IMG/VR virus record: IMGVR_UViG_3300021197_001752
Location: 64,001-128,000 of that record
Length of the DNA stretch: 64,000 nucleotides
Source of the DNA: a virus
Strand: one strand, 5' to 3'
How positions within the stretch are numbered: the stretch's first letter is position 1; every line of letters begins with the position of its first letter. Below, piece by piece: positions 43,590-57,996 of this stretch. Under the pieces are notes generated by a model, which worked only from the letters and a program-made list of their open reading frames with translations, made no database searches and was not told where the DNA came from. Made by a program: the position numbers and the translations under genes.

Positions 43590-43638
43590 TTCTTCCTTAC
43601 AATTTATAATACCACATATTAGGTATTGGTCAAGGAAA
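43590..43638 (-). promoter_or_regulatory. Early-type promoter/RBS cassette 6
   Basis: TTCCTTGACC-N16-TATTAT-AAATTGTAAGGAAGA. Confidence 0.85.
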
Positions 43639-48045: not shown

Positions 48046-50037
48046 CTATGGGATCTTAATTGTCATCTTACCTTTGTTGCCAGTAGCAAAGTAGTTCTTG
48101 CCACCGTCAACTCGGATCTCGCCATCAAACTTAGCTGGGTAGATAATATCTAATGGTCCCGACTTTATGCCTGTATCACCCTCTGCCACATAAGCTCCCC
48201 TCTTTGCGTAGATCTGTACTAAAGGTAATCTATTATACATCGCTTTAGCAAAGTTTGTAAAGATCTTTTCTCCATTTTTATCTTGCGCATTATTGACTGT
48301 CTGTTGTGCAAGTTTTGCCATGCCAGCAATAATATGGAGCGCCTCGCTATAATCAGACTTGCCTGTGTTGGGATTGAAGAGTGCCTTGAACTTATCAAGT
48401 TTGGCTTTTATATTTTTGTCTGCTACTGGTGCCATCTCTCTAGGCCATCTCTTAGCTTTTTCAGCCTTCATCAACTCTCTAATTTGGTTGTACTGATCCC
48501 CTGTCAGATTGTAGTCGCCTGCTATTTCAACATGCATCCGTATAACTAAATCCCACCAACTATATCTTTTGTCAGCCATCATATCCACAATGCCTGGGTC
48601 TTCTGTATTGCCAGTGTATAAGTTTATCCCTGAAGGGTTGCCTGGTCCATACAATTCTATTAGCTGCTGCTTCTCTTCCTGCTCTATATCCGCCAACTCT
48701 GCATAGAGTTCTGCCACGCTTGGGTTAGCACCTTTCCCAGCCTTTGAACTAACCATGATATCTTGCTTATCACCAAAGTGAACATAGCTATCTTTTAGCT
48801 TTTCGTTCTTAGACATGGGCCATGATACACCGTCGCTCTCAGTCCAGTTGTTAACGCCTCGTGGCTTGAGTAAATTCTCTAGGGCACTGTCGAGTACAGC
48901 GTCGTTACCCAAGTATGTCTTGTTGCCTGCGGCTAAGAATATTGGACCTGTGACTTCGCTTAGGTATTTGAAAATTGATGGTAAGTACTGATCTCTGTTT
49001 TCCTCTGACTCGAATTGCAGAACAGGTAAGGCTTGCCCAGCCACTGCTGCTTTGAGATAAGCAGGAAGACTTCTTGCTAAAGCGGTGTCTATCTTGCTCA
49101 ACACGGACTCATCAAGTGAGCCTGGAACTGAATCAAGAGCCATCTTTTGATCACGGCTGCCGCCCAGTAAACTAGGACCTACCTCTTGAATCTCTTTGCC
49201 AGCCTGTGTGGTCTTAGAGCCGAAGCCTGTCTGTTGTCGAAATTGTGTTTGCTGCCATGGTGGTCCTGGGCTTGTCTGCCCGCTGCCATATTTTATAAAA
49301 GCGTACACCTCTTTTCCCAGAGCCTTTCCTTTATCTGCCTTAGCAAAGAGAATCTGGACTGACTTAACTCTGGAGGGTAATTTATCCTCTTGCCCTTCGG
49401 CGCTGTTATACAGGACAAGCTTACTGAGCTTGCTGTTAGACAGGGCTGACTTCAAGTCGTTGGGGGTGGGAATTTTATTTTGCTTGGCTATAAGTTGATA
49501 AACAGCTAGAGCGAGTTGCGCTTGATTTGTTATTGTTTCGGGCTCGCCTATCTTAATAAACTGTTGCCCGACTGTCTCAATCGCTTGACCTTCCTTGTTG
49601 GTAAGCTTAAGTCCAACGGTGTCTGGGTGCATCACACCCCTGCCTTCTTGAATAATCTCGTTAATACATTGCTCTATGAGAAATTCTAGCCCCATCTCTA
49701 TGGTTCTTGTTTGCGTCTCTCTCATGCTATGTTGGGTATCTTTTATCCCAGCCATCAGAGTGGGGCAAGTTTGACGTAGGTCATCTACCATATCAGGGCA
49801 GTCACAATTATTATGACCAAACTCAACATAATCATCGATACTGTCGGCTTGCTCAGGGCTGACAAATAACCCCATAGTAAATATATAACGCTGCTTATCG
49901 TTCATGGCGTCAAAGTCTCGATCGTAATTATATCCATTGACGTTTAGTCGCTGGTTCAATTGGTTGATCTTATTCTTGTATTCCATCGCCACGTTAGGAT
50001 CTGACGCTAGAGATTGGTAGGGATTGTGCCCTGGCAT
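48046..50037 (-). CDS. Large hypothetical protein, possible nuclease-like domain
   Basis: 663-aa ORF; WP..NE.L.DS...VSSK motif; internal INEIIQE segment. Confidence 0.6.
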   Translation of the reverse strand: MPGHNPYQSLASDPNVAMEYKNKINQLNQRLNVNGYNYDRDFDAMNDKQRYIFTMGLFVSPEQADSIDDYVEFGHNNCDCPDMVDDLRQTCPTLMAGIKDTQHSMRETQTRTIEMGLEFLIEQCINEIIQEGRGVMHPDTVGLKLTNKEGQAIETVGQQFIKIGEPETITNQAQLALAVYQLIAKQNKIPTPNDLKSALSNSKLSKLVLYNSAEGQEDKLPSRVKSVQILFAKADKGKALGKEVYAFIKYGSGQTSPGPPWQQTQFRQQTGFGSKTTQAGKEIQEVGPSLLGGSRDQKMALDSVPGSLDESVLSKIDTALARSLPAYLKAAVAGQALPVLQFESEENRDQYLPSIFKYLSEVTGPIFLAAGNKTYLGNDAVLDSALENLLKPRGVNNWTESDGVSWPMSKNEKLKDSYVHFGDKQDIMVSSKAGKGANPSVAELYAELADIEQEEKQQLIELYGPGNPSGINLYTGNTEDPGIVDMMADKRYSWWDLVIRMHVEIAGDYNLTGDQYNQIRELMKAEKAKRWPREMAPVADKNIKAKLDKFKALFNPNTGKSDYSEALHIIAGMAKLAQQTVNNAQDKNGEKIFTNFAKAMYNRLPLVQIYAKRGAYVAEGDTGIKSGPLDIIYPAKFDGEIRVDGGKNYFATGNKGKMTIKIP

Positions 50038-50038
50038 G

Positions 50039-50323
50039 TTATTCTCCGCTTAAGGCTGCTAATATTTCCTGTCGGATCATAGCTTCAAGTTCCAAACTTT
50101 CGTTCTTCTCTTCTTCTTCCTCATCGGCGTCACCGCCTTCTTTATCAATGATAGCTTTCTGAAGACCGTCGGGTAACTCGTCTTGATCACCCTTGAGTTT
50201 AGGATTATCGTCATACTTCTTAGTTGATTTTTCTTCTAAGCCCTGGCTCTCTTCATCGAGCTTCTGCTGCTCCTCTTTGATGATTTCCTTAAGCCTAGCC
50301 TTAGTAATTTGAAATGTGTTCAT
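50039..50323 (-). CDS. Acidic protein with ITKARLKEIIKEE leader
   Basis: Shares leader with the 55-58 kb array; late motif at 50348. Confidence 0.7.
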   Translation of the reverse strand: MNTFQITKARLKEIIKEEQQKLDEESQGLEEKSTKKYDDNPKLKGDQDELPDGLQKAIIDKEGGDADEEEEEKNESLELEAMIRQEILAALSGE

Positions 50324-50358
50324 GGTAAAAAAGTACTCCTCAATGTATAAATAGTTTT

Positions 50359-50970
50359 CTAACTGGCAAAATCCCGCTCTTCAAACAGAGTATAGGTAAA
50401 TGAATTACCAAATGCTTTAGCCGAGTTGTTGCAAATCTCAATAAATGTATTATAATCATCCACCTTTTGGAACACCTGGCAGCCAGCCGACCACCTCTCA
50501 ACTAAGTAAGATTGTGTCCTAGGGTTGCTCCTATGAATGTTGATTCCGAATAGGCCTTCTTGTGTTTCTTCGCAGCCATAATCCAAGATGTCATCCTTGT
50601 TGTTATCTCGCCAAACACGAACTGGCTTTCTCTGGCATAGAGCTTCGTATTTACCCTGGTGCTTAGCTAGCTTCCAAGTCGAACGATATTGACCTGGGAT
50701 GAGAATAGCTGTGCCCTTTGGGCTCAATGGGTTTTCTAACCAGTGCTTGCCTGGGTCTGTAGTCGCACTCCAGACATGGTGTCTCCACTCTCCATTCTCT
50801 CGGTAGACGGCACAGATGTAGTCATCGAAACGATTACTCTCTGGGTTGTCTACTCTGACTCCAAAGATATTGACATTATAATCTTTATTGCCGTCAAAAA
50901 ACATATAGCCTTTTTTCTCGTAAGCAGCAACGACCGCATCTTTGTCAGCAATAATTTCTTCTAAGTTCAT
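50359..50970 (-). CDS. Putative peptidoglycan-active protein (L,D-transpeptidase-like His/Cys motif)
   Basis: NIFGVR, FDD, TTDPG, PGQY, GINIH...WSAGCQV. Confidence 0.6.
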   Translation of the reverse strand: MNLEEIIADKDAVVAAYEKKGYMFFDGNKDYNVNIFGVRVDNPESNRFDDYICAVYRENGEWRHHVWSATTDPGKHWLENPLSPKGTAILIPGQYRSTWKLAKHQGKYEALCQRKPVRVWRDNNKDDILDYGCEETQEGLFGINIHRSNPRTQSYLVERWSAGCQVFQKVDDYNTFIEICNNSAKAFGNSFTYTLFEERDFAS

Positions 50971-50986
50971 CACTTCTATCTCCTGC

Positions 50987-51739
50987 TTATTCTGGGACAT
51001 CCCAGAAAGACTGGTCGAGGATTCTGTCGGCAATACCATACTCAATAGCTTGTTTAGCATTAATATAAACATTTGTTTTCCGCTCCATCATCTTCTTGAT
51101 CATTCTCTTATTCATGTTGGTGACACTAGCTAAAGCCTCTACGTATTGATCTTGTAACCACTTTGTTTCTTCATACTCAGTTTCAAGCTCGTGCATAGCA
51201 CCATGGTGACCTGCTCGTAGAGAATGGATCATCACTCTGGTATTCTTGCCAATGAACCTACAGCCTTCCGCACCTGATGCTAACAGTAGAACACCTGCTG
51301 ACATAACCTTGCCGAGCCCTACTGTTTCGATAGGCGTTGATGATCTCATCGATAACATCAAATCATGGATACCAAACATGTCGGCAGCGTTACCGCCAAA
51401 GGTTGAAATATAAAACTGCATTGGCTTGACTGCCATGTACTGTTTTGTTTTTTCTGTATTTATTAGAACAAGACTATTGTTGTAGTTGTGATAAATCAAT
51501 GCTGAGATAATAGCAGATGCTGACTCCTCATCAAGATTACCACAAAAGTTAATTGCTCGTGGAGTACGTTTCTCGGTGGGCACCTCAACCAAGGTTGGCA
51601 CCACTTCTCTTATCTCGTCTTCGGTCATGTCTTCAATAGAGACAACCTCTAAAGCAATGTCAAGGTCAGCTTCGGTTTCTGGTACCAGAACCTCGACCTC
51701 TTCTTTGCTACTCTTCCTCTTCGTCTTCTTCGTTGGCAT
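50987..51739 (-). CDS. clpP: ClpP protease subunit
   Basis: YISTFGG, G.VMSAG, RVMIH, A.QAIEYGIAD; position of the catalytic Asp reads ERKTNVY. Confidence 0.9.
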   Translation of the reverse strand: MPTKKTKRKSSKEEVEVLVPETEADLDIALEVVSIEDMTEDEIREVVPTLVEVPTEKRTPRAINFCGNLDEESASAIISALIYHNYNNSLVLINTEKTKQYMAVKPMQFYISTFGGNAADMFGIHDLMLSMRSSTPIETVGLGKVMSAGVLLLASGAEGCRFIGKNTRVMIHSLRAGHHGAMHELETEYEETKWLQDQYVEALASVTNMNKRMIKKMMERKTNVYINAKQAIEYGIADRILDQSFWDVPE

Positions 51740-52091
51740 AAGTATTTCTTCCTTCTTCGGGTAATAGGTCTTTCATAAGATCGCTTTGCCTAAATTGGCT
51801 AGCGTACTTACTGTATATAGATTGCTCCTGGCGTGTAAAGTATACCTTATCTTCACCAGTTTGTTCATCAAATTCAAATCTAAATTCAAGTTGATCATCT
51901 CGATACTCGATCAATGCTTGAATATATTGGGTTAGATCCCCTACTTGCATAGCACCTTTCTCAATCTGGTCATATGCAAAGTTGAGTACTCTGCTGGCAA
52001 CAAAAAGCTTTTCAGCAGAGACTACCTTATCATCGTCACTAACTTTAGTAAACTTTAGCAGCGTTAGAATATCTTTTACTCTCGCTCTCAT
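51708..52091 (-). CDS. Hypothetical protein
   Basis: AGGA RBS. Confidence 0.6.
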   Translation of the reverse strand: MRARVKDILTLLKFTKVSDDDKVVSAEKLFVASRVLNFAYDQIEKGAMQVGDLTQYIQALIEYRDDQLEFRFEFDEQTGEDKVYFTRQEQSIYSKYASQFRQSDLMKDLLPEEGRNTYANEEDEEEE

Positions 52092-52117
52092 AACTTCCTA
52101 ATTCTTTAGGGCTAAAT

Positions 52118-52156
52118 AAAAAAAGATGTAGACCAAGTTGCCCTGGCCTACATCTT
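52118..52156 (-). terminator. Intrinsic terminator
   Basis: AAGATGTAGGCCA...TGGTCTACATCTT followed by T-run. Confidence 0.85.
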
Positions 52157-52187
52157 ACTTTATAAATGACAAAGTGTAAAGCTTTCT

Positions 52188-52772
52188 TTACTTCTTGTTA
52201 AGGATGCGCTCAAGAACTCTCTTGAGTACGGCTTCTGTTAAAGCCTCTTCATCTACAACCTCTACGACGGTATCGTCTTTGCGGTTATAGTGATCGCCCA
52301 TGCCATGATCCATTGCTGGATCTGCCATTGCTGGGTCTTCGTGTGCCATGGCAGCATCCCCTTCATCACCAGCTTCCATTTCTGGCATTGGTGACTCTTC
52401 CCCTTCATCATCTTCCTCAGTCTCAACACCGAATGGCTCAAGAGCTTTTAAGATAGCTTGGACAACATCCATGCCGTCGGCATCGGATGCTCCGTCCTCT
52501 TCCATCTCGACTTCCATATCACCTTCTTCCTCGCCCTCTTCGTGAGCCTCTTCTTCGATGGCGTTTTCCCCAGTAGCGGCTTCCAATTCGGTTACCGTTT
52601 CTGTTTCGGTCTCATCTTCATCAGTTTCGTCTGTCTTGGAGTTCTCCGTGACAGTCTCCTCTGTTACTTCTTCTTCTTCTGTGAAGAATGTTTCGCTGAT
52701 GACGCTAACGTCAGCTAACTTAGCCCATCTGCGGATGGTCTGTTCATTTAGTAGTTTATCTTGCTTTGTCAT
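52188..52772 (-). CDS. Highly acidic protein (scaffold/internal-head-like)
   Basis: LLNEQTIRRWAKLA N-terminus, E/D-rich; AAGGAG RBS, late motif at 52830, own terminator. Confidence 0.65.
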   Translation of the reverse strand: MTKQDKLLNEQTIRRWAKLADVSVISETFFTEEEEVTEETVTENSKTDETDEDETETETVTELEAATGENAIEEEAHEEGEEEGDMEVEMEEDGASDADGMDVVQAILKALEPFGVETEEDDEGEESPMPEMEAGDEGDAAMAHEDPAMADPAMDHGMGDHYNRKDDTVVEVVDEEALTEAVLKRVLERILNKK

Positions 52773-52850
52773 TTATTCAACTCCTTAAAAATCAGATATA
52801 CTTAGATGACGTCATTCGTCAACTGTTAGTAAATAGTTGTGTAAAAAGTA

Positions 52851-53117
52851 TTATTCCTCCATGAAATCAAAAAGTCCTCTTTTACCTGCTTTTTCCATCG
52901 CTTTATCTTGAATTTGTTTGACTCTAGGGAAGCTAATCTGCAATCGATCTGCCACATCTCGCAAGCTAAGACCACCTGGATTTTTATTCGCACAAACGAC
53001 AGAGCAGTTGCTATCACCCTCATAATCAATCCAGTGCCTACACTCTTGCTTATCACAAGATTTACTGAGCCTGTCAAAGAAGTCAAAGCAAATGCTACCG
53101 TTTTCTAATTTATACAA
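52851..53117 (-). CDS. Cys-rich Zn-binding + sigma70 region-4-like HTH protein
   Basis: C...C..ECRHW...NC..C; LSLRDVADRLQISFPRVKQIQDKAM. Confidence 0.75.
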   Translation of the reverse strand: MYKLENGSICFDFFDRLSKSCDKQECRHWIDYEGDSNCSVVCANKNPGGLSLRDVADRLQISFPRVKQIQDKAMEKAGKRGLFDFMEE

Positions 53118-54487: not shown

Positions 54488-55405
54488 TTATTCTTCTTCT
54501 GAAGATTCTTCTGAAGGTGCATCACCTGAAGTGTCCTTAGCAGCAAGCTGTACGTTCATCCAAGATTGACCCAATGGGTTTTCAACTGGGGCTTCGGCGA
54601 ATCTCTGCACTGATCTTGTCGATTCCTTGGTTGGTGGTACTGGCTCGTTGTTGACAACGATTGTAAAGTTATTGGCACCAAATAACTCTTGATAGTTTTC
54701 TTTATTGTCCTGAACTTGTTGCCACATCTTCTCTACTTCTTCAGGGTCTAGCTTTCTTTCTCTCTTGGCATTTTGTTTTAGTGCACGTTCAAGCGAGGTG
54801 TCCACAAAGATCATGTAGGTGTCGTAGCCAAGATCAATTAGGCGTTGGCGCTTTTTCACCATCTTGCTATAATCTTTACCAGTGCCGTCAATCAGCATCC
54901 CCAGGCGACCTGCGGCATAATAGCCCTGAAGCTTTGCTAACTTACCTTTAGCGACGGCTCGGGTAGAATCGCTTCGGTCGCCCAATAGGCCGATCTGGGC
55001 TGCAAGTTCTGCTGCATCCTGACCTTTATACTCGCCTGCTTCTTTAGCAAGCTGAGAGATGGCACCCAAGTCAGCAAGTGGGATACCCATCTTCTTTAGC
55101 CCGATCTCGAATAGGTTATCACTGTTAACATATTTAAGCCCATAGCGACCCACGAAAGAAGAAGCGTCGAAGGTCTTAGCCTGACCAGCTTCTCGGGCAT
55201 CAAACATTACATCAGCCACATAAGACTTGCCACTGCCTGGTCCGCCCGCCGTAAATACAGCTTTGAGAATGCCCTTATCGTAGACACCCTCATCCAGTAG
55301 TTCTTCGTTGACTACCCCAGGATGATCAAGTAAATAACTTTGACGCTCCTGTAGCATCTCGCCCTGTGCTTCTTTGATTAGTTGCTTAAGTTGTTTGATA
55401 TCCAT
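54488..55405 (-). CDS. P-loop kinase (AAA_33/zeta-toxin-like) with IKQLKQLIKE leader
   Basis: GGPGSGKS, VNSD, IDGTG, ALKQNAKRER. Confidence 0.85.
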   Translation of the reverse strand: MDIKQLKQLIKEAQGEMLQERQSYLLDHPGVVNEELLDEGVYDKGILKAVFTAGGPGSGKSYVADVMFDAREAGQAKTFDASSFVGRYGLKYVNSDNLFEIGLKKMGIPLADLGAISQLAKEAGEYKGQDAAELAAQIGLLGDRSDSTRAVAKGKLAKLQGYYAAGRLGMLIDGTGKDYSKMVKKRQRLIDLGYDTYMIFVDTSLERALKQNAKRERKLDPEEVEKMWQQVQDNKENYQELFGANNFTIVVNNEPVPPTKESTRSVQRFAEAPVENPLGQSWMNVQLAAKDTSGDAPSEESSEEE

Positions 55406-55410
55406 GCTAC

Positions 55411-56337
55411 TTATTTACTTCCCATTTCTAACAAGACATTCCTAAATTCTTCTTGAATGATTTTGTTTAGAGCACTGTTTGTCATTTTGATATGACGTTG
55501 CTTGCTTTCGCCAAATGGTAGCTCGCCCTGACCTTCTGGCTCGGCTGCCAAACCTTTGGTCTGACTCTTATAAAGGCTGCCGCCTTGCGCCAATAGATTC
55601 AACACACCCTTTACGCTGCCGATGTTTCCATGACCACCTCTTAGTTTCTTGAGGGCATCATATTTCTCGTCTTCGAGCTTATCATCACCAAAGGGGAACT
55701 GTACACTAAGGTTGAATGCGGTTTTAGATGTGTCGCCTCGGTTTGGAATAGCCTTGAGTTCTATCTCAATATGCTCTGGGTAGAATATATCATACCTCAA
55801 AACACCTGTGGTGATTGACTCTATGTGAGCAATTGGCTTGTTCTTCATATCTGGAATAATATTTGCCAGCACTTTAGCTAAGTGATCTTCATACTCTACA
55901 GCAGCTTTGACCAATGCATCATAAAGGTCGTTGTCTCTACCACGATCTAGCAAGCCAGCGTGGATGGCCTTGTTCGTCGCCGCCAGGTTCATCTCGCCTT
56001 GGGTTTCTTCTGCTAGCTCTTGTCTAATAATATTTTGTAGTTGTTGTTTTGTGATTTTCATTTTATTCTCCCTTTCATCTAGACCGCCATACATTGTGAC
56101 TATCTGTACCGCAGCCTTGTTTACGAGGTCAAAAGGTATCTTATCAAATCTACTCTGGAGATTTTTGATAGTGTATTGTATCTTTTCTTCTTTGTTGTTG
56201 CCTTTGGTAAACTTCTTAATTTTGTCAACACCACCAAATTGCTTAATATAAACGTCAACCATTTTCTGCACGTCCGCTTCGTCGGTGCTGAGCGCCTCTC
56301 TAATCATTTGACGTATTTGATCTTTGGTAATCTTCAT
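55411..56337 (-). CDS. MKITK-leader protein with three leader copies
   Basis: MKITKDQIRQMIRE, internal MKITKQQLQNIIRQE, C-terminal IKMTNSALNKIIQEE. Confidence 0.75.
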   Translation of the reverse strand: MKITKDQIRQMIREALSTDEADVQKMVDVYIKQFGGVDKIKKFTKGNNKEEKIQYTIKNLQSRFDKIPFDLVNKAAVQIVTMYGGLDERENKMKITKQQLQNIIRQELAEETQGEMNLAATNKAIHAGLLDRGRDNDLYDALVKAAVEYEDHLAKVLANIIPDMKNKPIAHIESITTGVLRYDIFYPEHIEIELKAIPNRGDTSKTAFNLSVQFPFGDDKLEDEKYDALKKLRGGHGNIGSVKGVLNLLAQGGSLYKSQTKGLAAEPEGQGELPFGESKQRHIKMTNSALNKIIQEEFRNVLLEMGSK

Positions 56338-56341
56338 TTTG

Positions 56342-56515
56342 CTATCCTTCGCTATCTACCAGTCTGTCTAGGATAGCTTGCAGTCTTTCATATTGGGACT
56401 TATGTGCCTGCACGGCTTTCTTAAGCTCTGCTATAACATCATTCATCGTGTCTTTGTCACTATCTGAGATTTCTTCCCTAATAATCTTTCTTAGCTCGCC
56501 TTTGCTAATCTTCAT
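56342..56515 (-). CDS. MKITK-leader protein, 57 aa (not in ORF track)
   Basis: Hand translation MKISKGELRKIIREEISDSDK...; TAATG coupling. Confidence 0.75.
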   Translation of the reverse strand: MKISKGELRKIIREEISDSDKDTMNDVIAELKKAVQAHKSQYERLQAILDRLVDSEG

Positions 56516-56763
56516 TAGTTCTTGCCGTCTTCATTTGCTATTGCTTGCATTATCATACGCAGTGAATCGGCGTCCTCCTGAAGCGGGTGATAATCGCCTT
56601 CTTGGTTTTCAATATACTCCGTAAGAGCATTATAGCCGTCTTCCAGAAGATCAAGGGCTCTGGCGAGAGGACCGCCGTAGGAGTCATAAGGGGCATCACC
56701 CTCAAACTCTTTGAGTAACTCTTCTTTAATAATCTTTTGTAGTTCTTGTTTGGTGATTTTCAT
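56515..56763 (-). CDS. MKITK-leader protein
   Basis: MKITKQELQKIIKEE. Confidence 0.75.
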   Translation of the reverse strand: MKITKQELQKIIKEELLKEFEGDAPYDSYGGPLARALDLLEDGYNALTEYIENQEGDYHPLQEDADSLRMIMQAIANEDGKN

Positions 56764-56951
56764 TTTCTATCTGCTCCCCTGGATAAGGTGTTTAGAGCAT
56801 TATAAATTTCTTTCATCCGAGAATCCTCAAAACTAAGTTCGTTACTTGTGTCATCCACAATGTCTTGTAAAGCGCCCTGTGCGCTGGCTAGCACCTGTGA
56901 AGTATACGCTTCTTTGATTATGCTTCGTAGCTCTTCTTTAGTGATTTTCAT
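56760..56951 (-). CDS. MKITK-leader protein
   Basis: MKITKEELRSIIKEA. Confidence 0.75.
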   Translation of the reverse strand: MKITKEELRSIIKEAYTSQVLASAQGALQDIVDDTSNELSFEDSRMKEIYNALNTLSRGADRK

Positions 56952-56954
56952 TTC

Positions 56955-57326
56955 TTAGCCCCAGTCGTCTTCGTCTGGTAGACGGCGACCTGACTCTTTG
57001 GTTAGCATCTGAGCGGCTTCCACAGCTATTTGCTCGTCTGCGCCTTGGTCCTCTAGTTCCTTCTTGAACTCCATAAACACACCAGTGGTTGCTTTAAAAC
57101 GTTCATCGCTCAGCATCGCCTTTTGACCGTCGCTGAGAGTCTTGCCTAGAGCCACAGCCCTAAGGACATAAGTGTATTGGTATGTCTCTTTGTCAGTCAT
57201 TTCTTCCTTATCCAAGCCAAGCTCCTTGAGGATTGCTTTGACAACCTCGTCTCGACGCTCAAGCTGGTTACCTTTATATGTGACTTCTGTAATATACTTG
57301 CGCCACTCTGATAATAATTCTTTCAT
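56955..57326 (-). CDS. Protein with MKELLSEWRKYITE leader
   Basis: Second leader type, ending in Glu. Confidence 0.7.
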   Translation of the reverse strand: MKELLSEWRKYITEVTYKGNQLERRDEVVKAILKELGLDKEEMTDKETYQYTYVLRAVALGKTLSDGQKAMLSDERFKATTGVFMEFKKELEDQGADEQIAVEAAQMLTKESGRRLPDEDDWG

Positions 57327-57427
57327 CAACATGCCCCTTCGCAGCTAGCGCAAGCGCAACAGCCGCAGCAGCAGCAACAGTGGCTGCTATTGAATAGATT
57401 AACTAATTTGTGTAATAGGTTTTTCAT
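57326..57427 (-). CDS. 33-aa peptide with 10 Cys (metallothionein-like), not in ORF track
   Basis: MKNLLHKLVNLFNSSHCCCCCGCCACASCEGAC; ATGA overlap upstream and TGATG overlap downstream. Confidence 0.7.
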   Translation of the reverse strand: MKNLLHKLVNLFNSSHCCCCCGCCACASCEGAC

Positions 57428-57693
57428 GAGTCCATCTCCAAGGCTAACATGATCTCGTCCATTGCCTTAGAGATGCTCCTAGCAGCATCATCAAGATAAC
57501 TCTGCGCATCTTGGATTGGAACACTGCCACCCATCTTATCAACAAGGTCGTTTGAAAGTGAACCGATCTTTTGACGCATCTCCATTAAAGCTGCAACATG
57601 TGGCTGGTCTGCGTGAGGGTTTTTACCAAGGTCAGCGTAGCGCCCGACCTCTTCTTTGATAATCTGCCTTAGCTTTGCTTTGGTGATCTTCAT
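57424..57693 (-). CDS. MKITK-leader protein
   Basis: MKITKAKLRQIIKEE. Confidence 0.75.
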   Translation of the reverse strand: MKITKAKLRQIIKEEVGRYADLGKNPHADQPHVAALMEMRQKIGSLSNDLVDKMGGSVPIQDAQSYLDDAARSISKAMDEIMLALEMDS

Positions 57694-57694
57694 T

Positions 57695-57934
57695 CTAGAC
57701 GTCCATCTTGCTCATATCGATATCGCCAGCAGGCTCACCGCTTGGCTTCGTTCCGCCATGGCGATTCTGCATAGCCAGAAGATCATCCATAATCTCTGGT
57801 GTTCCGCCCATCTCTTGGGCTACTCGCATAAGCTCTTGGAACAGCACTTCCATTTGTGTGCTGTACTCTTCGTTGAGTTCTTTAGCAACTTCTTCTTTAA
57901 TGATTTCTTTGAGTTGTTCTTTAGTAATCTTCAT
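57695..57934 (-). CDS. MKITK-leader protein
   Basis: MKITKEQLKEIIKEE. Confidence 0.75.
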   Translation of the reverse strand: MKITKEQLKEIIKEEVAKELNEEYSTQMEVLFQELMRVAQEMGGTPEIMDDLLAMQNRHGGTKPSGEPAGDIDMSKMDV

Positions 57935-57979
57935 TTAGTAAATCCCCTTTGGGCACCATGTGGGTGCGGTAATACAATA

Positions 57980-57987
57980 TAAATAGT
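57980..57987 (-). promoter_or_regulatory. Putative late-promoter motif ACTATTTA heading the MKITK array
   Basis: Same motif at 9307, 20513, 45401, 50348 and 52830; variants at 4417, 11435, 15092, 18769, 37272(+). Confidence 0.6.
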
Positions 57988-57996
57988 TGCTATATG

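Follow-up and report, generated by a model that had tools for sequence, protein, structure and literature searches.

An N-Terminal Leader on Otherwise Unrelated Proteins of an Uncultured Marine T4-Type Phage Is a Candidate Capsid-Targeting and Cleavage Propeptide

Introduction

In bacteriophage T4, the internal proteins IPI, IPII and IPIII and the protein Alt carry a capsid-targeting sequence (CTS), which the prohead protease gp21 removes (Mullaney and Black 1996, as reviewed in PMC9026906, PMC3012670). The CTS comprises 10–20 residues, of which residues 4 and 7 serve targeting and residues 8 and 10 processing, and the internal proteins are otherwise unrelated (PMC9026906, PMC3012670, PMC5694885). 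In phages phiKZ, 201phi2-1 and SPN3US, the propeptides of ejection and inner-body proteins are cut after Glu at A/S/G-x-E (PMC5694885). Here, we describe a leader, MKITKxxLxxIIKEE, at the start of otherwise unrelated proteins encoded in one operon of IMG/VR record IMGVR_UViG_3300021197_001752. The operon lies in a stretch of 64,000 nucleotides, called the window throughout. We argue that the leader is probably a T4-like propeptide, which would target proteins to the capsid and be cleaved off there.

Data and Approach

The window corresponds to bases 64001–128000 of the genome of an uncultured marine T4-type phage. This genome measures 146,705 bases and is recorded as a linear fragment, rated 81% complete. 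For the leader, a 15-column hidden Markov model (HMM) was built from ten copies and run across the six frames of the whole genome. Related loci were collected with the P-loop kinase encoded at the end of the operon as the query, which led to six IMG/VR loci; five of these (L004–L008) were fully compared. The spread of the leader was assessed by scanning IMG/VR with a degenerate DNA pattern for the exact leader, and 80 loci were fetched for profile counts.

PHROG scans of the larger open reading frames (ORFs) of the genome revealed replication, nucleotide-metabolism and accessory genes and no head genes; neither Peptidase_S77 nor Gp23 had a match in this 81%-complete fragment. A blastn search of the operon region against deposited phages gave no match, nor did a tblastn search with the 20-residue leader, in which case query length and the low-complexity filter are probably to blame.

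Two Leader Types on Unrelated Proteins

On the minus strand, nine coupled ORFs extend from 57934 to 54488, six of which start with MK[IL][TS]KxxLxx[IM]I[KR]E[EA]. The leader profile finds 14 matches in the 146.7-kb genome, scoring 12.8–28.5 bits, all on the coding strand and 12 of them at ORF starts. The next-best six-frame match reaches only 7.3 bits, and 20 residue shuffles yielded no match of at least 12.8 bits (maximum 10.8). Nine matches fall inside the window, at 57934, 57693, 56951, 56763, 56515, 56337, 56061 (internal), 55491 (C-terminal) and 50308. The five outside it (genome positions 2165, 9907, 10296, 10562 and 11331) are part of a second cluster at 2–11 kb.

An initial annotation of the window had assigned the leader to the first six of these positions, all of which hold; an HMM scan, which it had suggested, gave the counts above. 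The internal and C-terminal copies that it described in a 308-amino-acid (aa) protein are found at 56061 and 55491, and the copy on the distant gene at 50323 is present after five extra residues. It had also read the operon as tightly coupled (gaps and overlaps amount to at most 5 bases) and had pointed to an interspersed second leader type, which proved to head ten ORFs of the genome, one of them in the window. Its statement that the leader is the only common feature stands as well: the bodies following the leader reveal no significant BLAST similarity to one another, save for low-complexity stretches.

Nearly invariant positions of the leader are M1, K2, I3, T4, L8, I11, I12 and E14. On average, the copies share 65% nucleotide identity, and of the residues that are identical between them, 42% are encoded by different codons. 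Since synonymous codons differ in this way, the peptide and not the DNA is conserved, which argues for selection on the peptide.

The second leader, MK[KE]LL[TS]EWRK[YF][LI]xE (type 2), heads one ORF in the window (57332) and nine at genome 5.8–9.6 kb. Both types put [LIM]-x-E at residues 12–14. The combination of [LIMV] at residue 12 with Glu at residue 14 occurs in 19 of the 188 predicted genes, 16 of which are members of the two leader families. Two other complete genomes possess both types as well, with 13 type-1 and 6 type-2 leaders in G002 and 6 and 2, respectively, in G013. Outside the window, a 354-aa ORF at about 4856 of the genome (L001), located behind the promoter-like motif ACTATTTA discussed below, starts with MKKFRVRIIKE|D and may represent a third, shorter leader type.

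Among cultured phages, Flavobacterium phage immuto (NC_055915) encodes four leader variants, MKKSQLRQIIKEA, MKKSQLREIIRKE, MKKSELVKLIKEE and MKKSQIVKAVQEV. MKKSQIVKAVQEV belongs to gp072, which is located between the portal and the protease gp070, where T4 has gp67 and gp68. The N-terminal families of immuto number at least three, MKKSQL... (4 genes), MENFDLKKFLVENKLT (4 genes, one of which is annotated as PduO-type adenosyltransferase) and MKKQILSEQFxRMQxLAGIITE (2 genes); the two beyond MKKSQL each hold a hydrophobic-x-Glu motif. Microcystis phage Mel-JY01 has N-terminal families of its own, MIKLKSLLQEIISDRVWH (3 genes) and MNTEEIDFKFN (3 genes).

Head Module and Putative Cleavage Site

The head module was studied in the relative G001, a 174.6-kb contig (95% complete) with a syntenic layout and a kinase 92% identical to that of the window. 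Its gene order is terminase, Portal_T4 portal (PF07230), Peptidase_S77 protease (PF03420, 2e-27; L011:13928–14524), a 123-aa protein, ribosomal protein S21, an acidic scaffold-like protein (L011:15671–16687) and a Gp23-type capsid protein (PF07068, 1e-74). The 123-aa protein following the protease has a leader-like start, MKKSQLKELIKE. The S21 homologue (PF01165, 9e-8; L011:14893–15186) lies between the protease and the scaffold-like gene. A ClpP-like gene of the window was considered as the head protease and rejected, as a true S77 protease is encoded in the head module of the lineage.

The closest cultured capsid proteins to that of G001 are those of immuto (45% identity), Mel-JY01 and Rhodothermus phage RM378, and on these grounds we place the phage in a distant ('far') T4-type lineage with a DnaE polymerase. 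When T4 gp23 (NC_000866) is aligned with the G001 capsid protein, the maturation site FLTE|A aligns with LLKE|A; the immuto capsid protein has IVSE|A at the same place. Both the leader end I-K-E|E/A and the [LIM]-x-E of type 2 fit the rule of the gp21 family, a cut after Glu. S77 was found in 16 of 18 leader-bearing contigs longer than 100 kb and in all six of those that are at least 90% complete.

Distribution and Bodies of the Leader Proteins

The DNA pattern for the exact leader occurs in at least 119 stretches of IMG/VR. The 80 fetched loci contain 220 profile matches, of which 218 stand on a start codon, and the proteins concerned measure 33–375 residues. In other phages, we count 196 distinct leader proteins, which fall into 155 body clusters; I12 and E14 show 97% and 98% conservation, respectively, and position 4 is nearly always Thr or Ser. 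Across the 18 leader-bearing contigs above 100 kb, the kinase profile is found in 5, and two genomes with a completeness rating of 100% lack it. The ClpP-like gene is present in 14 of the 18, including all six near-complete ones.

Without the leader, the small proteins of the window would have mature parts of 43–109 residues with isoelectric points of 4.1–4.7; they are acidic, helical ORFans. The 308-aa fusion is near neutral, and the other leader cluster of the genome holds very basic proteins. Pfam, PHROG and NCBIfam searches with the small proteins of the window gave nothing above noise and no effector or anti-restriction domain. In Pfam, 2 of 100 representative leader proteins of other phages have a match (one pentapeptide-repeat protein, one FliG_C). 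One lead, the label 'structural protein' that homologues of a basic leader protein of the other cluster bear in two cyanophage records, was set aside, because the label is annotation alone and the homologue of phage P-RSM4 lacks the leader.

Organization of the Operon

In L004–L008 the operon has syntenic flanks: DnaE lies upstream, and three genes, namely the kinase, a zinc-ribbon gene and a GMP-reductase-like gene, follow downstream. Between these fixed flanks stand 5–10 leader ORFs, whose body sets differ. In the window, all genes of the operon are on the minus strand. The first encodes a 79-aa leader protein with an acidic body (57695–57934), which starts with MKITKEQLKEIIKEE and is the first leader-bearing gene of the operon in all relatives. 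Its AlphaFold2 (AF2) model consists of three helices at low confidence (predicted local distance difference test, pLDDT, 68), the leader helix continuing into residues 16–23. It is followed by an 89-aa leader protein (57424–57693; start MKITKAKLRQIIKEE), which has orthologues in L004 and L005 only. Embedded behind it is a leaderless, Cys-rich peptide of 33 aa, MKNLLHKLVNLFNSSHCCCCCGCCACASCEGAC (57326–57427), kept in all five of L004–L008, where its place in the operon varies; it comes first in L006 and L008. The adjoining 123-aa protein (56955–57326) bears the type-2 leader MKELLSEWRKYITE and has orthologues in all relatives. Its residues 4–52 give a sub-threshold NCBIfam match to 'QWxxN domain' (NF033898, 3.9e-5, 24 bits vs a cut-off of 55).

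Three short type-1 proteins come next, of 63 aa (56760–56951; start MKITKEELRSIIKEA; body homologue in L008 only), 82 aa (56515–56763; start MKITKQELQKIIKEE) and 57 aa (56342–56515; start MKISKGELRKIIREE). The body of the 57-aa protein is the C-terminal module of a 121–132-aa protein in L006 and L008, and the joint before it reads ...GVKE|EISD and ...SVKE|EISD, respectively.

The 308-aa protein (55411–56337; start MKITKDQIRQMIREA) is a fusion of two leader-bearing modules. In addition to its N-terminal leader (56293–56337), it contains an internal copy, MKITKQQLQNIIRQE, at the joint of the modules (56017–56061; 22.9 bits) and a C-terminal leader-like copy, IKMTNSALNKIIQEE (55447–55491; 21.2 bits). 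An internal start at 56061 is also possible, as AGGGAG stands before this copy. The C-terminal copy is kept in L004 and is internal in L005, ahead of one more module. The two halves of the ORF are separate genes in relatives, and also separate clusters among only 10 representative clusters retrieved from 1.84 billion proteins; an ESM Atlas search with the 215-aa module gave no usable match.

The operon closes with a 305-aa P-loop kinase (54488–55405), which we assign to the generic AAA_33/Zeta_toxin type. A leader variant had been claimed for this protein too. In the window, the degenerate copy MDIKQLKQLIKEA is weak (5.3 bits); in L006–L008, the kinase comes last among the modules of a 465–534-aa protein that does have a full leader at its start and joints reading KVKE|A and MKVQGLKDLIKKQIQE|L. 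At the VKE|E and KVKE|A joints the targeting half of the leader is gone and its KE|E or KE|A end is retained, as one would expect of a cut site under selection.

In Foldseek, the kinase matches adenylate kinases about as well as it matches polynucleotide kinase and zeta toxin. The AF2 model shows an N-terminal helix (residues 3–27), a linker (residues 20–39) with pLDDT below 50, and a core from about residue 45. Of the 3,122 members of the family, 120 were listed, and nearly all of these start with a similar helix, xxDLRxL[VI]xE[VA]. The bare kinase domain occurs without an N-terminal helix in gp129 of phage HTVC008M (NC_020484; 220 aa). The same domain is also found inside a 778-aa multidomain protein, gp053 of Agrobacterium phage Atu_ph07 (NC_042013). 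Sequence searches of PDB gave no match for the kinase, nor for a 663-aa protein encoded elsewhere in the window.

Promoter-Like Motifs and Neighboring Genes

Two motifs are enriched in intergenic gaps, ACTATTTA(Y) and GTGGTATTATAAATTGTAAGGGAG. In the window, ACTATTTA stands 53 bases upstream of the first leader gene (57980–57987, minus strand), 32 bases upstream of a 94-aa leader gene (50348–50355, minus strand) and near 52837, before a 194-aa acidic protein. In G001 it precedes the scaffold-like gene, with the capsid gene directly downstream, a head-tail adaptor-like gene, the tail sheath (phrog_23, 1e-64) and the orthologous leader operon. The initial annotation had taken the copy ahead of the operon for a putative late motif. 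The association with head and tail genes supports a late promoter, while promoter function and timing are what we infer from it. The second motif occurs as GAC-N14/15-GTGGTATTATAAATTGTAAGGGAG at window positions 43606, 33725, 25712, 18103 and 17313 (minus), 21–23 bases before start codons. No structural gene is among the annotated ORFs that follow it, and the motif therefore probably combines an early or middle promoter with a ribosome-binding site.

A neighboring block on the minus strand (48046–52837) is headed by ACTATTTA and comprises first the very acidic protein of 194 aa and an ORF of 127 aa, then the ClpP-like protease (250 aa) and a phrog_3000 protein of 237 aa; after a second copy of the motif come the 94-aa leader protein and the 663-aa protein. 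The ClpP-like gene (50987–51739; PF00574) encodes an additional protease. The 94-aa protein (50039–50323, minus strand) is very acidic, starts with MNTFQ-ITKARLKEIIKEE, such that five residues precede the leader, and is translationally coupled to the 663-aa protein. The latter reveals an invariant cluster of [LI]-x-E sites, LIEQxINE..QE[GA]RGV, at residues 120–135, which may mark a propeptide boundary. An 88-aa protein (52851–53117, minus strand), kept in relatives, has a weak Sigma70_r4 match (3.6e-5, just under the Pfam cut-off) and could be a small phage transcription factor.

Discussion

We consider it probable that the leader is a capsid-targeting and cleavage propeptide of the T4 kind. 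It would fold as an amphipathic N-terminal helix, and through this helix proteins made late would bind to the scaffolding core while the prohead assembles. In the course of maturation, an S77 prohead protease of T4 type would clip it after Glu14, at I-K-E|E/A. The type-2 leader would act alike, given its [LIM]-x-E in the same register, and cleavage at leader copies or remnants would separate the parts of fused forms. Core binding, cleavage, virion retention and any role after injection are steps that we infer. For the small acidic proteins of the window, an equally plausible role is that of accessories to the core or scaffold, which would exit the head instead of being injected as cargo.

The initial annotation had gone further and proposed a modular tag that loads effectors, including the kinase, into the head. 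The modular tag agrees with the T4-type head with S77, the [L/I]-x-E end, the shared motif and the turnover of modules. The label 'effector' is unsupported: the bodies are acidic ORFans without family matches and the kinase is of a generic P-loop type.

Several observations weigh against the propeptide. The head type is taken from a relative, because the record itself is without head genes. The leader cluster adjoins replication genes, outside the head module, and the window bodies are acidic, whereas T4 internal proteins are basic. The co-occurrence with S77 mainly marks the clade, since all T4-like phages have S77 among their core genes; HTVC008M and P-RSM4 have S77 and lack the leader. The exact scissile bond is uncertain, as the presumed leader cut is followed by Glu in 84% of cases and the aligned capsid sites by Ala. 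Moreover, the AF2 model of the 79-aa protein does not allow a decision on whether the leader helix is packed on the body.

The leader might instead be a docking helix or degron for a shared partner, above all a late-expressed phage ClpP-like protease working with a host unfoldase, and would then serve timed turnover and not capsid loading. This agrees with the ClpP-like gene in 14 of the 18 large and all six near-complete leader contigs, with its absence from the leaderless HTVC008M and P-RSM4, and with its position in the window between two ACTATTTA motifs, 1.4 kb from the 94-aa leader gene. However, immuto is S77-positive and has no PF00574 match, yet carries four leader-variant proteins and two more N-terminal families; ClpP is thus not required for shared leaders. 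The near-invariant I12 and E14 match the S77 rule of cutting after Glu and are at odds with ClpP preferences, and no ClpX-like unfoldase was seen among the annotated ORFs of the window. We regard a docking helix or degron of this sort as unlikely. An equally low standing is given to fast-diverging paralogues or recombination cassettes, in which an N-terminal helix would be kept for a cytoplasmic structural or oligomerisation role, without proteolysis or packaging. Small helical proteins in tandem arrays may well diverge past the reach of BLAST, and in the model of the 79-aa protein the leader helix does extend into residues 16–23. But the same leader stands on proteins of 33–375 residues in 155 body clusters and on a P-loop kinase polyprotein, two unrelated leaders have the [LIM]-x-E register in common, and only the KE|E end is retained at fused joints. 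The kinase leader, too, is set off from the core by a low-confidence linker, and the kinase of HTVC008M does without it. Simple paralogy was rejected: the check for full-length homology among members, which would have meant just that, found none (BLAST; 155 body clusters).

Far less probable still is a recognition or acceptor tag (e.g., at Thr4) for a modifying enzyme, be it the P-loop kinase of the operon or a different one, similar to the leaders of ribosomally synthesized and post-translationally modified peptides. The Thr or Ser at position 4 and the Cys-rich peptide in the operon would suit such a tag, as would the kinase closing the operon in all six related loci, a biased sample in that the loci were found via the kinase. 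A kinase-recognition tag was nevertheless rejected, with the kinase profile in only 5 of 18 large leader contigs and missing from two genomes rated 100% complete. The other leader cluster of the genome has no kinase beside it, the kinase fold is of the small-molecule or polynucleotide type, and no radical-SAM or similar gene is among the annotated ORFs flanking the cluster. Least credible of all is that the similarity reflects the nucleic-acid level, for example a translation-initiation enhancer or recent gene conversion, and no peptide function. The A-rich first codons ATG AAR ATH ACN AAA are indeed common for efficient initiation, but a signal at the DNA level is largely refuted by the codon differences between leader copies (65% identity, 42% synonymous differences at identical residues). 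In addition, conservation reaches residues 8, 11, 12 and 14, and internal and C-terminal copies exist.

Beyond this genome, we tentatively put forward that a broad marine and freshwater 'far-T4' clade uses a few interchangeable N-terminal address tags ending in a head-protease cut site, such as the two leaders of this genome and the three N-terminal families of immuto, which would route dozens of ORFans per genome into the prohead, including kinase polyproteins cut at leader remnants. If such address tags exist, the sequences of hundreds of uncultured phages could directly reveal which proteins are packaged into the virion; if the leader is a tag for packaging and cleavage, a 15-residue motif would mark capsid-loaded proteins in the 119 or more IMG/VR stretches. 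This would give a first functional handle on viral dark matter, with 155 body families among the 196 proteins sampled. The principle of the T4 internal proteins would then be widespread, scaled up and multi-tagged well beyond the T-even phages, and natural tags would become available for putting foreign proteins into non-coli phage capsids. The idea is directly testable, since immuto is cultured and carries leader variants.

Comparison with Known Systems

Like the phiKZ-type giant phages, the system described here would have many head proteins cut after Glu by a gp21-related protease, redundant propeptide sites, and paralogues with identical N-termini. Their propeptides, in contrast, are mostly longer than 100 residues, with a small residue at P3 rather than I or L, and their processing is proven by mass spectrometry, whereas that of the leader is presumed.

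A second comparison concerns the T4 core proteins gp67 and gp68 and the scaffold gp22, which are cut into small peptides by gp21. They resemble the window's leader proteins in being small, acidic, helical and late-made, lateness being presumed in our case. T4 gp67 contains DLIKEE and an acidic tail, like the 94-aa protein at 50323, and leader-like genes stand beside the protease gene in immuto and G001. However, most leader genes of the window lie outside the head module and vary among relatives, which is unexpected for essential core proteins.

The closest parallel is the T4 CTS. Two ORFs of the T4 record NC_000866, taken to be IPII and IPIII, start with MKTYQEFIAE, and beyond the M-K start and the [I]-x-E end, the leader has no sequence similarity to these 10 residues. 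On this comparison, leader and CTS are an analogy of design, without detectable homology. The leader is longer (14–15 residues vs 10), of several types (two or more families per genome) and on far more proteins (about 24 ORFs vs about 4). Some of these are polyprotein-like, multi-module fusions with leader copies or remnants at their joints; bodies are acidic instead of basic, and Glu is usual after the presumed cut. Nevertheless, its kind is already known from T4: a short N-terminal propeptide with an M-K start and an [I/L]-x-E end would be common to otherwise unrelated proteins, in a lineage with gp20, gp21 and gp23 homologues, where the tagged set varies among close relatives and its genes lie away from the head module.

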